Notes under the pieces: generated by a model | The model's input: only the letters and a program-made list of their open reading frames with translations | Told to the model about the DNA's origin: nothing | The model's database searches: none | Assembly (NCBI RefSeq): GCF_963921235.1 | Contig: NC_086097.1 | Span: forward strand, 71,116,001 to 71,180,000 | Direction of reading: 5' to 3' | DNA: 64,000 nucleotides | Source: Mobula hypostoma | Lineage: Eukaryota | Made by a program: the position numbers and the translations under genes | In this document: piece by piece, positions 3,725 through 34,329 of the stretch | How positions within the stretch are numbered: position 1 is the stretch's first letter | Layout: each line of letters starts with the position of its first letter

Positions 3725-4160
3725 AGTTGCAGGACAGCAGTATCTACTTTCAGGAGCCCCCATCACCCAGGTCATGCTCCCTTCTCACTGCTCCTCAGGA
3801 CTCACACCACCAGATTCAGCAAGTTAGTACCCTTTAACTATCAGGCTCTTGAACCAGTGTGATAACTTCACTCATCTTCACTTGCCCTATCATTGAAGTG
3901 TTCCCACAACCTATGGACTCCCTTTCAAAGACTCTTCAGCTCATGCACTCAATATTTATTGTTTATTATTATTGTTTCTTTTTTTCTTCTGTATTCACAC
4001 AGTTTGTTGTCTTTTGCACTTTGGTGGTTTGTCCACTCTGTTGGGTGTGGTCTTTCACTGAGTCTATTATGGTTCATTACTGAGTACGCCCGCAAATAAA
4101 ACAAATCTCAGGGTTGTATATGGTGACATATACGTACTTTGATAAGAAATTTACTTTGAG
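3725..4160 (+). mobile_element. Rex1/Babar LINE 3' end
   Basis: HHPGHAPFSLL...RTHTTRF motif of the Rex1 ORF C-terminus, AT-rich 3'UTR and TACTTTGA tail. Confidence 0.7.
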
Positions 4161-4294
4161 CACAACATCCAATCAACTTGATGAAGTTGCGCTAACTGCA
4201 AACCAGATGGCAAATAATTATAATTTTAAATTTTTATCGGTTGTATAAGAATTATAATAAAAACGAATACCTTGACAAAGTTTTGTGCAGTGCA

Positions 4295-5395
4295 TGTCAT
4301 ACCTTACAAACTTAATTGTTTTTTTTTGAGGAGATAGCAAATGATAAGGGTAAGGCAGTGAACATTATCTACATGGACTTCAGTAAGGCATTTGATAAGG
4401 TACCCACTAGTAGATTGATTCAGATGATAAAGATGCAAGGGAGCCAGGGTGAATTGCAAGTTTGAATTCAAACTGGTTTATGCATAGAAAACAGAAGGGG
4501 TAGAAGGGTGTTATCTTTGGCAGGAAGTCTGTGATTAGTGGTGTTCTGCAAGGGTCTGTGCTGGGACCTATATTATTTGTGATATATAATCTGGCTTTTG
4601 GATGGAAATATAGATGGGTGGAACATCAAATCTGTGGTTGACAGAAAGATTGGTGAAGTTGTGGATAGCATAAAGTGCTATCAAGGAATACAGCAGGATA
4701 TAGATCAGTTACAGATAGGGCAGAGAAGTGGCAGCGGGTTTTAATCCGGGCAGGTCTGCAGCTTGGCACTTTGGGAGGTCAAATAAAAGGAGAAAGAATG
4801 CAGTTAATAATAAACACCTTAATAGCATTGGGTCCAGGTTCACAGTTCAATAAAAGTGGTTATGAAAGTGGATAAGATGGTAAAGAGCAAATGGCATGCT
4901 TGCCTTCATTGGTAGGGTTGTTGACTATAAGAGGAGCAAAGTCATGCCTCCATTATCTAAAGCTTTAGTCAGGCTGCACTTGGAATATTGCACGCAGTTC
5001 TGATCAGCACATTATTGGAAGGATATGAAAACTGTGGAGAAGCTGCAGAAAAGGTTCACCAGGATGATGTCTGGATCAGAGAGTCTGAGCTACAGTATAT
5101 AGAAAGGCTGGACAAACTCATGTTCTCCCTAGAGTGTCAGAAGTTAAGGTAAGATCCCACAGAGGATTTTAAACTTATGAGAAACATAGATAGGGCAGGC
5201 AGTCAGAATTTTTTTCCCAGGGTAGAAATGTCAAACACAAGGAGACATGCTTTTAAAGTTAGAGGGGGAAGTTTAAAGGCAATGTGAGGGGCAGTTTATT
5301 TTAAACAGAGTGGCAGGTGCCTGGGATACGTTACCAGGGGTACGAGTGGAATTAGATGGTTTGATAGAATTTAGATAGAAACATTATTATGGTGG
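4295..5395 (+). mobile_element. CR1 LINE RT remnant (5' part, interrupted)
   Basis: Decayed LTNLI.FFEE..D.GKAV.IIYMDFSKAFDKVP, SGV.QGSVLGP.LF and VQKRFTRM-like motifs, with many stops and frameshifts. Confidence 0.85.
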
Positions 5396-29722: not shown

Positions 29723-30916
29723 GAGTTTGACTTCTGCAAGGAATTTCCTAATTTTAGTCCTTTCACTAATTTGGAACTCTGCTTTAGTATCTTGCTTTCA
29801 TAGTTCAGTCTTTCAAATCTTTATGTACTACAAGGCTTATAATCTCTCATGCTTCTCTTTAGGGTGATAACATTAGATACATCTTCTTAGTGTTCAAACT
29901 GTCAGTCATTCCTCACACATCAGACCTCCAATGCTCCATAAATGGTCTGCTAGCCTCAATGACCCTTTCCTGTATTCCCTGTATTTTAACTCATAAAGGA
30001 GAAAAATGTTATTCTTTTAAGAGCTAGCATTAAAACAGTGGAGTGATGGAGAAAGAGTGTAAAGTAAGCTGAAAATGAATAAGCAGTATTAAAGACAATA
30101 GGGAATATGAGACATTTACAAGGAAAGAACAGAATATCACAAGTTGTACTGATAGACAGTACTCCAAATGGCATTAACACTTTCACATTGGTGTCTAGGG
30201 CATTTGTTATCACCAGCACCTAGGCCATCATGTACGTTGCTATGATACAACATGTCTACATATGAAAAGGCACTGCTGTACTATAAATGTATGAATTTTG
30301 CATTACAGATGATTGTGCATTCAAGGTCAGAATATCACTGTTGGGACAAATGGTTTCTACAATGCTGACAATCAGCACCATACCTGTTATTACTATTACA
30401 TGCATGAATGTAATTAATTTTATTGTTTAAAATTAAATACAAATATTTGCACTCAGCAATTAATCATCCACGCCAATTTTTGTAAATTAAGACTCTAAAG
30501 ATTCGGACTTGGTTTTTCAATCTGCAATCTATAGCAGTAATAAAATAAACAGGAAGCAAGTTTGCCATGAATTTACCTAAAACATAAAAAACTAATGAAT
30601 AACAACTTATCTGTACCTCCAAAGATGAGCACTTTAATATACTTTTTCAATTTCTGTTAATTTACAAACCTTCTGTGTCTACAACTAATATGAATATCTG
30701 TGCATCAGACAACTGATAAAATTTAGATCAATTCATTGTCAATTTAAAGCAATAATTATCCCCAGTCTGCTTCTGGTGTAAAACTAGCTACAAAAAATCT
30801 GTTATTTCCCTGTGATAAAAAGTAATATTACCCATGACTTTGAGAACAACTACAACAATACACTCAGTGGCCACTTTATTAGGTACACCCATATACAGGC
30901 TCACTAAGACAAATTG

Positions 30917-31115
30917 TGTGGTGATATCAGGTGCAATGATGTGCCAGTACCTGATTGGACAGCACTGAGCGTGCGCGGCGTTTGCCAGAGTGTAGCAGCA
31001 TGTGGCGGGGTTAAGATGTGTTTGTTTATTTCTGTAAGTAAAAGTTCTCTAATTCTTCCAGAATATGATTCTTTGTTGTTAACCCACGGAATGTTTAAAT
31101 AGAAGTAAAATAACA
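30917..31115 (+). repeat. 5' LTR
   Basis: TGTGG...TAACA; ungapped match to 32828-33026 with about 15 mismatches by hand count. Confidence 0.95.
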
Positions 31116-31129
31116 TGGTGTCAGAGGTG
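31116..31129 (+). promoter_or_regulatory. Primer-binding site, tRNA-Leu-like
   Basis: TGGTGTCAGAGGTG directly after the 5' LTR; resembles the TGGTGTCAGAAGTG PBS of fish Gypsy elements. Confidence 0.8.
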
Positions 31130-31211
31130 CTTTTGGAAGAATAATACAGGAGAATCGAAAATCGAAGATAATCGGAAAAAAAAGAAAAAAGTTCGAACAA
31201 TAATTGGTGAA

Positions 31212-31977
31212 ATGGAAGGTTTACAAGCCCCACAAAAATTGCATCTGACTGGGAATGTAGCTGAGAATTGGAGGATATTCAAGCAACAGTTTGAGATATA
31301 TTTATTGGCCCTTGGAGCTGATAGAAAAACAGACAAAGTCAAAGCGGCAATCCTGCTCCATGTAATCGTGACTGATGCAGTAGAGGTATACAATAATTTT
31401 GTCTTTGAAGATGGAGATAATTTCAATTTAAGGTTGATAACGGACAGATTTGAAGTATTTTGTATGCCGAGGCGTAACTTAACGTATGAGCGATACAAAT
31501 TATTCACGTGGGCGCAGAAGGCTGCTGAAACAATTAATCAGTATGTTACGAAGTTAAGAAAGCGTAGTAGAATGTGCGAGTTCGGATTGCTCACGGAATC
31601 GCTTATTAAAGATAGACTGGTTTGTGGCATTTGAGATAATGCTCTGAGAGAGGCTTTTGCGTGAGCAAGATTTAAATTTTGAACAAGCTTTCGCGCTCTG
31701 CAAAGCTACTGAGACTGTAAAGTGACAAACTGAAGAGCTTTTTGTTGATAACTACAATGTAAATGCTATAAAAAAAAGCACAAATATATCAAGAAATATA
31801 ATAATACGTCGACAAAACCAATAGAAAGCAAGAGGGCATTTGAAAAAAAAGTAATGTGATCGCTGTGCGCGGGAACATAGTCCAAATCAGTGTTTTGTAA
31901 ATGGCAAACTTTGCTATAACTGTGGTAAGATTACTCATTTTTCGTGCTGATGTAGAAGTAGAAAGAAGGAAAATGAA
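31212..31977 (+). pseudogene. Gypsy gag, disrupted
   Basis: GNVAENWRIFKQQFEIYL, YERYKLF, ETINQYVTKLR, CEFG..LIKDRLVCGI; frameshift at ~31650, then RLLREQDL and zinc knuckles CDRCAREHSPNQC and CYNCGKITHFSC*C; five in-frame stops. Confidence 0.9.
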
Positions 31978-32637
31978 ATGAAACAAGTAAATGCAGTGAT
32001 TGAAGATGAATGTGAGGAAGTTTATATAGATGTGCTTTATGATAATGCTGACATGGAGAATATAAAAGCAGTAGCTGCAGTGTCTGAGACGACCAAACAG
32101 GAGGCAATTAATGATGTGAAAAAGCAATGGCAGGAAGAGGTTGCTTCAATGCAAACAATAATGAAAGAGACACTGAGAGATTATGAGATTCAGTCTAATC
32201 ACCGACTAGAGCAAGAACGCTCACAGTGGGCACAGTATAAGCAAGAAGTGAAAGCTCAAGTAACGGAATTGAGAAGTTTTATTGAAATGAAGTCTCAGCA
32301 TAAAAAAGAGATTACACAGTTAATGAGTGAATTAGATGAAGAAAAGAAGATTCATATTTCATTACAAATGGAAATGGACGGAATTAGGAAAGATACAGTC
32401 CAAACAGAAGCAGGGAAGCAGATTACTGAGGGGGATAGCGTGAAGTGCTTACCTGAAATTCCAGATTCTAACCCGGAGGCATGTGAGAGTATACCAAAAA
32501 GTTTAGTTGAGATACATGAAAAGCTTAAAGCAGCAAAGAAGAAGGAAGAGAAGAAGTACAAGAAGAGTCATGGCCCAGATAGCGAAGAGCCAACTTCAGA
32601 GTTTCAGTTAGCTGATATAGATTTGTTTATTGATTAA
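31978..32637 (+). CDS. 219-aa open frame continuous with the gag zinc-knuckle frame; chimeric coiled-coil cargo
   Basis: Gag linker ([17 protein letters not shown]), then RABEP1-like, SH3KBP1-like and unidentified segments; no stops; expression unknown. Confidence 0.7.
32047..32241 (+). pseudogene. RABEP1: Captured Rabaptin-5 N-terminal coiled-coil fragment
   Basis: [65 protein letters not shown] aligns without gaps to recalled human AEMENIKAIATVSENTKQEAIDEVKRQWREEVASLQAVMKETVRDYEHQFHLRLEQERTQWAQYR. Confidence 0.92.
32245..32391 (+). pseudogene. SH3KBP1: Captured CIN85 C-terminal coiled-coil fragment
   Basis: [49 protein letters not shown] aligns to recalled human [50 protein letters not shown]; closer than to CD2AP. 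Confidence 0.88.
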
Positions 32638-32814
32638 TGCTGTTACTTATTTTTTCTTTTTAAGGAAAAGAGGATGTGATTCTTCAGAGATTCAGTTAAA
32701 GGATGCAGACGAGACAAAACATGTAAGTAATAACAAGTAAGTCCACAGAGAGACTGATTGAGACTTGTTGAATTATGTTTTTGCTTTGATTAATGTTCTT
32801 TATTTTTTCTTTTT

Positions 32815-32827
32815 AAGGAAGGGAAGA
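32815..32827 (+). promoter_or_regulatory. Polypurine tract
   Basis: AAGGAAGGGAAGA abutting the 3' LTR. Confidence 0.85.
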
Positions 32828-33026
32828 TGTGGTGTTATCAGGTGCAATGATGTGCCAGTTCCTGATTGGACAGCACTGAGCAGGCGCAGGGTTTGCCAGA
32901 GTGTAGCAGCATGTGGCGGGGTTAAGATGTGTTTGTTTATTTCTGTAAATAAAAGTTCTCTTATTCTTCCACAGTATGATTCTTTGTTGTTAACCCATGG
33001 AATGATTAAATAGAAGTAACATAATG
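32828..33026 (+). repeat. 3' LTR
   Basis: Direct repeat of 30917-31115 containing AATAAA; terminal CA reads TG. Confidence 0.95.
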
Positions 33027-34329
33027 AATTGTAAAGCAGCCAATCATGTTGCAGCAACTCAATGTATAAACGCATTCAAACATGTTCAAAAGGTTCAGTT
33101 ATTATTCAGCCCAAACAGCAGAATGGAGTCCAAATGTGATCTAAGTGACTTTGATCGTTGGCATGATTGTTGGTGCCAGACAGGGTGATTTGAGTATCTC
33201 AGAAACTGCTGACCTCCTGGGATTTTCATACACAACAGTCTCTAGAGTTTACAGAGAATGGTAGAAAAAACAAAACAAAAAAATAAGAAACATACAGTGC
33301 ATGGCAGTTCTGTGGGTGAAAAAGCCTTGTTAATGAGAGAGGTCAGAGGAGAATGGCCAGTTTGGTTCAAGCTGACAGTAACTCAAATACCCACATGGTT
33401 GGTGTGCTGAAGAGCATCTCTGAATGCACAACATGTGGAACCTTGAAGTGGATGGGCTACAGCAGCAGACACCCATGAACATGCAGTCAGCGAACACTTC
33501 ATTAGCTACAGAAGGTGGCCACTGAGTGTACAGATGGAAACAGGATATGAATACCGTGTACAGATAGGAAGACCAATATTAGATTAAGTCTGCAGACTGT
33601 AATTCTCCTTACTTTGCTTCAATACACTTTATCAAGCCCTTGCCCAGTGGCTCAGTAGATTTATATTGTGATCAGATGGATAAACTGCGGTTCAGAAAGA
33701 TTCCTGCAGCTAAATTGGATAGCCTGTGAGAATGAACATTATGTGCAATTAAACCTCGTTGGTTGATTCTGATGAATATACCATAGCAAGCTCTGCTAGC
33801 CATGCTGTTATCAGCTCAGCAGTGGGCATAATTTTGTGGATAACTAGCATAAGATACAAACTGGTCTGGACTATTTGAGGTAAACCAATACATGGGAAGT
33901 ACACTGTGTCTGCTGCAGGTGCTGGCAGACAATCTATAACGCAGTCCACATTGAGAGAGAGAGAGAGGGGACCCCCTATTTTCAATCATTGCACTGGAGG
34001 ACCTATGGAGGACCAGAGTGTGAGAGATTTCTTACTTCCATAGTGCCATCTAAGGGCCTCCTGACACATACAGTAGAAGTGTTGAAAAATGTTGATTTTT
34101 GGTTCTGCATACCAAAATCTTCCATGGGAATGGCCCTCAAAAGTGGCTTTGATTTTAAACTTGGAGCTCCCTAAAAAAGGATGTTGTATACAGCTTGCCA
34201 ATTCAGTCATGTACAAGTCATAAAGCAAAGTGACATACAGGTAGATATCTCCTCAACATTTTGCTCCTGCCTGCCTCTTACCTGCGCTATAAACAGAGCC
34301 CTAAATGATATGTGCACTGAGTGCCAGAG

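Follow-up and report, generated by a model that had tools for sequence, protein, structure and literature searches.

Tan et al. (2016, Genome Res 26:1663, PMC5131818) describe chimeras made by retroposition mediated by long terminal repeats (LTRs) in animals, with a median microsimilarity of 6 bp at the switch points. The maize LTR retrotransposon Bs1 carries partial exons from three host genes that are not linked to one another (PMC5131818, PMC7264820), and is listed in PMC5131818 with one to five copies and one of its three pieces out of frame. Here we describe a 2.1-kb LTR element of the ray Mobula hypostoma, located at positions 30917-33026 of a stretch of 64,000 nucleotides (assembly GCF_963921235.1, contig NC_086097.1, positions 71,116,001 to 71,180,000, forward strand) that we call the window. 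This element lacks enzymes of its own and carries pieces of three host genes, RABEP1 (encoding Rabaptin-5), SH3KBP1 (encoding CIN85) and SLU7, fused in frame to gag.

The chimeras of Tan et al. and maize Bs1 are the closest known systems, and the mechanism of capture is already known (PMC5131818). As in the chimeras set out in that paper, partial spliced mRNA stands in place of part of the internal open reading frames (ORFs) with both LTRs flanking it, the switch points show microsimilarity (here 4-12 nt), several parental genes contribute in sense orientation, and the product has undergone secondary retroposition as a non-autonomous element. The cases presented there are young and exist in one or few copies, whereas here we find an old family with tens to hundreds of copies, a cargo fused in frame to Gag and a network of recombinant variants, in a cartilaginous fish, a host outside the survey as PMC5131818 delimits it. 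Bs1, as portrayed in the same source, is likewise a three-gene element; in the ray all three pieces are in frame, the copies number tens to hundreds and the host is an animal. PMC5131818 also names non-autonomous LTR elements that are copied in trans, MaLR/MERVL and ETn/MusD, which resemble the present family in having LTRs in common with an autonomous partner, in lacking enzymes and in being able to out-multiply that partner. A mosaic of host-derived coding sequence joined to gag is not known to be a hallmark of those pairs. An initial annotation of this locus, made from the sequence alone, knew of no description of such an element. The kind is in print, as LTR-mediated retroposition and as maize Bs1 (PMC5131818). 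Our literature search nevertheless returned no description of this particular element, nor of SH3KBP1, RABEP1 or SLU7 capture.

A further parallel is offered by replication-defective transducing retroviruses, which encode Gag-X fusions, have pol replaced by spliced host sequence captured by recombination during reverse transcription, and depend on a helper. An in-frame Gag fusion replacing Pol, and a probable helper dependence, are common to both; however, those viruses are exogenous and somatically selected for oncogene activity, whereas here we have a germline retrotransposon without env, whose cargo has no known growth role and shows no detected selection.

We interpret the window element as a decayed insertion of an old non-autonomous family of Ty3/gypsy type, made by LTR-mediated retroposition and multiplied with its cargo, and give this reading a probability of about 0.8. 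The captures from RABEP1, SH3KBP1 and SLU7 and their in-frame fusion to Gag are established. The initial annotation missed the third captured gene, SLU7, as well as the fact that the family is long dead and its origin by deletion from protease-bearing precursors. Below, the variants of the family are termed C-type, R-type, V2 and V3 (the window's type), and its nearest autonomous relative L053.

The window element and its captured host sequence

The element reads as follows, all features lying on the forward (+) strand. TSD denotes target-site duplication, PBS primer-binding site and PPT polypurine tract.

30912-30916 (+): TSD AATTG, 5' copy, identical to 33027-33031
30917-31115 (+): 5' LTR (TG...CA), 199 bp, 184/199 identity with the 3' LTR
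31116-31130 (+): PBS TGGTGTCAGAGGTGC, from comparison with family copies
31212-31854 (+): gag, capsid-like part, broken by 2 stops and 3 frameshifting indels (ORFs, translation, copy alignment)
31855-31950 (+): nucleocapsid (NC) with two CX2CX4HX4C zinc knuckles and 2 stops, one of them inside knuckle 2 (translation, copy alignment)
31951-32046 (+): acidic linker of the element after NC (comparison of V2 and V3 junctions)
32047-32241 (+): RABEP1 fragment (aa 88-152 of P0003) in which two host exons are spliced together (Pfam PF03528, host exon match)
32242-32394 (+): SH3KBP1/CIN85 C-terminal coiled coil (~aa 616-667 of P0023; PDB 2n64, 5abs)
32395-32409 (+): five-codon integrase C-terminus remnant, TVQTE (compared with C-type, R-type and L053 translations)
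32410-32589 (+): SLU7 fragment (~aa 455-517 of P0049), spliced (protein match, E 6.5e-18; BLASTP)
32590-32637 (+): integrase C-terminal remnant and stop codon TAA, resembling EPASEIQLTDA in L053
32641-32678 (+): extra PPT-like copy ending in the first LTR bases, a direct repeat of 32794-32831 (family D2, 87%)
32681-32790 (+): second remnant of the 3' end of pol (SSEIQLKDADETKHV...), absent from V2 copies
32813-32827 (+): PPT AAGGAAGGGAAGA, directly before the 3' LTR, conserved in copies and L053
32828-33026 (+): 3' LTR, its last two bases CA mutated to TG (LTR alignment)
33027-33031 (+): TSD AATTG, 3' copy, identical to 30912-30916

The sequence and the LTR alignment bear out the initial description of a complete LTR element with 199-bp LTRs, a 5-bp TSD, a PBS and a PPT, containing gag and no protease (PR), reverse transcriptase (RT) or integrase (IN). 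The two LTRs, aligned without gaps, are 93% identical over 197 nt, and the ends are those of an LTR retrotransposon, with direct LTRs inside a TSD, a PBS at the 5' LTR and a PPT at the 3' LTR. A PBS-like TGGTGTCAGAGGTG directly follows the CA end of the 5' LTR; most copies and L053 read TGGTGTCAG(A/G)AGTGG at this site, which may pair with a tRNA-Leu. Both PBS and PPT are conserved across copies and in L053. According to ORFs, translation and Pfam, the window element encodes no PR, RT or IN, having only gag and short integrase-tail remnants, and is not an autonomous retrotransposon.

Gag starts at 31212 (MEGLQ...) and matches no Pfam family, also when searched as the 183-aa gag frame at 31083-31634; zinc knuckle 1 lies at 31855-31893 and knuckle 2 begins at 31912. 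The gag of this copy is not intact: in all, 4 in-frame stops interrupt it, as do 3 frameshifting indels, and the stop in knuckle 2 falls just before 31951. From 31951 to 32637 the frame of the zinc knuckles continues open for 228 codons. The initial annotation was right that a stop-free segment follows gag, but beyond the two coils this segment holds the SLU7 piece and integrase C-terminus remnants, and is not plain linker.

The RABEP1 piece is identified by a match of the 228-codon frame to the Rabaptin family PF03528 (E 5.9e-33, 114.8 bits against a cut-off of 26.7 bits), which spans ORF aa 6-163 and extends into the CIN85 coil. The host gene lies on C71 with canonical splice sites; the captured sequence is 96% identical to its exon A and 92% to its exon B at the nucleotide level, with the two exons fused exactly at their boundary and the 9-kb host intron at that join absent. 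It amounts to 65 residues only, not the full Rabaptin architecture with its C-terminal Rab5-binding coiled coil, and is joined directly to the SH3KBP1 coil at 32241/32242. The coil matches PDB 2n64 and 5abs (E 2e-11), is all that the element holds of the architecture of three SH3 domains plus coil, and has a longer counterpart in C-type elements, where ~113 aa are 94% identical to ray SH3KBP1. The initial annotation, counting from 31978, had expected RABEP1 at aa ~24-88 and SH3KBP1 at ~90-138, and the Pfam and PDB matches fall at 24-88 and 89-139.

The SLU7 piece (ORF aa 154-213) matches the pre-mRNA-splicing factor SLU7 of cartilaginous fishes; by BLASTP the window copy is 49% identical over 69 aa, and a sister copy 78% over 37 aa. 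The host gene is on C21, with nine exon matches. One of its exons ends ...CAGATTGTT|gtaagt, at which point the element instead runs on into sequence of the downstream exon. On both sides the SLU7 piece is flanked by remnants of the element's integrase C-terminus. Splicing is shown for two of the three pieces: RABEP1 and SLU7 are both present as intron-less host sequence.

Host matches and AlphaFold2 also uphold the view that the RABEP1 and SH3KBP1 captures are sense, in frame and joined in one predicted helix. In the single-sequence AlphaFold2 model, one helix runs over ORF aa 46-155, across the RABEP1/CIN85 join (predicted local distance difference test, pLDDT, 91-97); the SLU7 piece is predicted to begin with a disordered part, which is followed by a Lys-rich helix. 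The CIN85 coiled coil trimerises and binds lipid.

Two features at the margins of the element merit description. The second remnant of the 3' end of pol (32681-32790) sits between the duplicated PPT/LTR-start stretches at 32641-32678 and 32794-32831, and this duplication of the PPT region suggests a further template switch at the element's 3' end. The flanks (window 30860-30916 and 33027-33480) read ...CAGTGGCCACTTTATTAGGTACACC... and contain a broken transposase-like frame (MESKCDLSDFDR...); judging by eye, we take them to be a decayed Tc1/mariner-like transposon around the element.

Copies, relatives and variants

Searches of the 3.48-Gb genome returned the element many times, and the best-scoring protein matches are proteins of rays. 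A whole-element search gave 57 matches from the best 40 of 1336 candidates, aligning end to end at 82-90% identity. Searched separately, the RABEP1 piece has at least 148 matches outside the host gene (best 150 of 306 candidates), the 52-aa coil at least 150 (150 of the 150 scored, among 497 candidates) and the SLU7 piece 65 of 74; all of these counts are floors. Two full LTRs are present at 22 of the 30 loci fetched, and the TSDs of these copies, which all differ from one another, are exact 5-bp repeats in 10 copies and differ at a single base in 8, the remaining 4 being unclear. Thus the chimera itself has undergone secondary retroposition, many times, as the initial annotation had proposed: the copies align end to end, and 18 of 22 have distinct TSDs. 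An assembly artefact or segmental duplication was considered and rejected on the same grounds, as the 5-bp TSDs at the LTR ends are distinct in each copy. Across the family the two LTRs of a copy are 87.4-95.5% identical.

Two loci depart from this arrangement. At L027 the 3' LTR is directly followed by a PBS (TGGTGTCAGA) and there is no TSD, which suggests a tandem array of the form LTR-internal-LTR-internal; the 3' flank of L025 is also PBS-like. In addition, three SH3KBP1-piece matches lie within 45 kb at C1:168384914-168430208, two with equal scores and the third on the opposite strand, suggesting that C-type copies were included in a local segmental duplication or inversion.

The autonomous partner with shared LTR and PBS that the initial annotation called for has a candidate in L053. 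This relative is 5.28 kb long, with 200-bp LTRs that are 94% alike and a PBS core and PPT the same as in the window element. Its layout is gag-PR-RT-RH-IN, RH being RNase H: a DTG protease is followed by the Pfam domains RVT_1 and RT_RNaseH_2 and then by Integrase_H2C2, and this PR-RT-RNase H-IN order in the autonomous form places the family in the Ty3/gypsy (Metaviridae) type. Bases 1-1130 of the window element are 82% identical to L053, the LTR 86% and the 3' end 86-93%; with the gag of another copy as query, family gag and L053 gag are ~75% identical in amino acids. Of the four autonomous loci compared, the other three (L054-L056) are further removed and similar to the C-type lineage. In L053, unrelated open frames lie between the RNase H part and the integrase part (4045-5013), probably a nested insertion of another retroelement.

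Variants with other combinations of gag, pol and host sequence are preserved in the same genome:

C-type (L031-L042): gag-PR-75 aa of RT-SH3KBP1 (~aa 538-667)-integrase tail
R-type (L043, L044): gag-PR-RT stub-RABEP1 (aa 62-172)-integrase tail
V2 (L045, L047-L052, L059, L060): gag-PR-RABEP1 with a 43-aa CIN85 coil patch
L046: single recombinant, joined at TDL
V3, the window's type (L001-L030): protease deleted, SLU7 added

The pol-less form in the window is a deletion derivative of these protease-bearing precursors: its linker (31951-32046) ends at a deletion junction with AAAT microhomology, and the deletion took the start of the RABEP1 piece along with the protease. The gags of C-type and R-type elements are ~55-68% identical to V3 gag, while their coil is 85-100% identical to the query. 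The coil is far more alike than gag across lineages, indicating that recombination has carried the cargo from one element lineage to another.

Two stingray genera have predicted proteins with these same architectures (P0001, P0002, P0020). The models are labelled either 'rab GTPase-binding effector protein 1-like' or 'uncharacterized'; in composition they are chimeras of gag/PR/RT stub with RABEP1 and/or CIN85, and are likely repeat-derived mis-annotations.

Junctions and the origin of the chimera

The junctions between element and host sequence show how the mosaic may have been assembled. In each of nine junctions aligned as DNA, the join lies on a microhomology of 4-12 nt common to both parents, and each is in frame. 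A tenth, at the IN/SLU7 join, has the microhomology GAAG. In total all 12 junctions (the nine aligned as DNA and three more) preserve the reading frame. Since k-mers shared by element and host are in the same codon phase in only 39-42% of cases, 12 of 12 in frame would be expected by chance with a probability of ~3e-5. A loose six-frame motif check of five junctions found them in 16-27 of 30 loci, with patterns that are short and degenerate; our assignment of family copies rests on the end-to-end DNA alignments rather than on these motifs. For the RABEP1 capture, the switch point on the 5' side (AGAGCT; L057 compared with L043 and L044) is no more than 8 bases into host exon A, just past the splice acceptor, a position that may be due to chance or may hint at a truncated or splice-related RNA template.

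Microsimilarity at the switch points, together with internal ORFs that are partly replaced rather than interrupted, identifies the element as a retroposition chimera. It also bears on a different scenario, in which processed host retrocopies landed in existing LTR elements that were then duplicated as DNA. Retrocopies made by long interspersed nuclear elements do land in repeats generally, and nothing more specific speaks for this scenario here. The captured pieces, however, lack both a poly(A) tail and individual TSDs; pol has been replaced rather than interrupted; microhomology is found at both ends of each piece; and the copies bear distinct 5-bp TSDs at the LTR ends. We regard nested insertion as largely refuted and give it next to no weight.

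Under LTR-mediated retroposition, the series of variants can be ordered as follows. In ancestral elements, reverse transcriptase would have moved between element RNA and spliced host mRNAs packaged alongside it, changing template at microhomologies of 4-12 nt. Pol would have been replaced first by a C-terminal piece of SH3KBP1, giving the C-type, and separately by a RABEP1 piece, giving the R-type. Recombination among such elements, together with deletions, may then have produced the gag-PR-RABEP1-coil forms (V2) and afterwards V3, in which the protease is gone and the SLU7 piece is present. The ancestral V3 product, of ~477 codons, would have comprised Gag, NC, the RABEP1 helix, the CIN85 coiled coil, the SLU7 piece and an integrase tail. 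Having no enzymes of its own, V3 would therefore have been copied in trans by autonomous, L053-like relatives that share its LTR, PBS, PPT and gag. Only rearrangements that preserved the frame would have been amplified, as though an uninterrupted, translatable Gag fusion were needed; the supply of Gag in cis, the stability of the RNA or a helical stand-in for Pol are possible reasons for the open frame. Template switching inside particles, trans-mobilisation and the reason for the open frame are steps that we infer from the preserved forms.

Decay, selection and the role of the cargo

To follow the decay of the family we used an alignment of 19 copies, three of the 22 two-LTR loci being excluded for large insertions. 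The whole frame is intact in none of the 19. Cargo and tail are free of stops and frameshifts in 5 copies, including the one in the window, so that the open cargo frame of the window copy is what neutral decay gives. Separate copies are open in separate parts of the frame, showing that gag, NC and all of the cargo were once a single frame of ~477 codons. Frameshifts per 100 codons number 0.98 in gag versus 0.24-0.32 in the cargo, but stops are most frequent in the RABEP1 piece. We read these regional differences in stops and frameshifts as noise, possibly from alignment effects at runs of A, and not as conservation. The whole family is long dead, all copies being old and broken.

Selection was assessed by sorting differences from the host RABEP1 exons according to how many of the 19 copies share them. 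On average the RABEP1 piece of V3 copies is 6.3% divergent from the host exons, and differences shared by half or more of the copies occur at 4 of 195 sites (2 synonymous, 2 nonsynonymous). From singletons through two intermediate classes to shared changes, the counts of nonsynonymous against synonymous differences (N:S) are 74:14, 11:4, 11:3 and 2:2; rare differences total 96:22, compared with 158:37 sites, a neutral ratio of ~4.3:1. These values show that the cargo has decayed neutrally, with no measurable amino-acid constraint. As there are only 4 shared changes, capture must have occurred shortly before the burst of copies, and the comparison has no power to detect selection in the active lineage.

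These data weigh on the idea that the host has domesticated the window copy, or a sister of it, as a gene encoding a Gag-coiled-coil protein. In the window the cargo frame is open over 228 codons, and NCBI pipelines predict similar proteins in two stingrays; those gene models, however, are automatic predictions, the gag upstream of the open frame has 4 stops and 3 frameshifts, and cargo and tail are open in the 5 of 19 copies that neutral decay would leave. With no copy intact over its whole frame and a neutral N:S, the intact frame and purifying selection of a domesticated gag gene are both absent, and we consider domestication very improbable.

More deserves to be said of the possibility that the cargo was adaptive as a protein, with the RABEP1-CIN85 helix serving as a Gag oligomerisation or membrane module that aided co-assembly, competition with the helper or tethering to endocytic adaptors. 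The coil was retained through every rearrangement, and in company with two diverged gag lineages (~55-68% gag identity); it is found at no fewer than 150 places; AlphaFold2 predicts a continuous helix over the RABEP1/CIN85 join; and every junction is in frame. On the other hand, no amino-acid constraint is seen (N:S is neutral, with just the 2 nonsynonymous and 2 synonymous shared changes), so little time separates capture from burst that the test has no power, the SLU7 piece is no coiled coil, and a cargo without function is also compatible with an open frame. We therefore consider an adaptive cargo unlikely, though deserving of some weight. The role in endosomal or particle targeting put forward in the initial annotation is not supported, given the neutral N:S and the mere 4 shared changes from the host exons. 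Its related proposal, that the Gag-cargo fusion was selected in a mobile parent, holds in part: the frame was kept open across 12 of 12 junctions, but selection at the protein level, with N:S neutral, is not supported. Selection for the open frame is well supported; a role of the coiled coils as protein is a minority reading.

A broader form of the same idea is that Ty3/gypsy parasites of rays repeatedly kept Gag-coiled-coil fusions, with the CIN85 coil and Rabaptin-5 helix as an assembly or membrane module used against the helper. This we think doubtful, at about the same level. If it were true, an enzyme-less element would have turned endocytic-adaptor domains of the host into weapons for out-competing its helper for particles, and the presence of the coil in two gag lineages and at ~500 candidate loci would reflect selection, not hitch-hiking.

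Some observations weigh against the origin that we favor, a non-autonomous family made by LTR-mediated retroposition and multiplied with its cargo. The candidate helper L053 is itself defective and only 82-86% identical to the family, and it is from shared ends that we infer trans-mobilisation by L053-like elements. Among the matches listed by a genome search with the whole SH3KBP1 protein, all are intronless and C-terminal and none is to the SH3-domain exons, so the host exons of this piece were not located. The count of in-frame junctions may be biased, as the junctions were spotted via translations and are not fully independent. The RABEP1 piece has no fewer stops per 100 codons than gag (1.05 vs 0.60), a pattern that fits neutral decay and lends no support to retained function. 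Finally, the continuity of the frame gives by itself no reason why continuity mattered.

The family extends LTR-mediated retroposition, until now a matter of flies, a few vertebrates and maize Bs1, to cartilaginous fish, and represents an unusually successful outcome of that process: a three-gene, fully in-frame Gag-fusion mosaic at tens or hundreds of copies. The preserved intermediates record each template switch and form a natural data set on exon shuffling by reverse transcriptase, and the series is informative on what a non-autonomous element must keep, which here is an open frame. In practical terms, such copies are annotated as 'RABEP1-like' or uncharacterized genes in stingray genomes. 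If the cargo was useful to the element, the family would be a rare case in which domains of host proteins have armed a germline retrotransposon.

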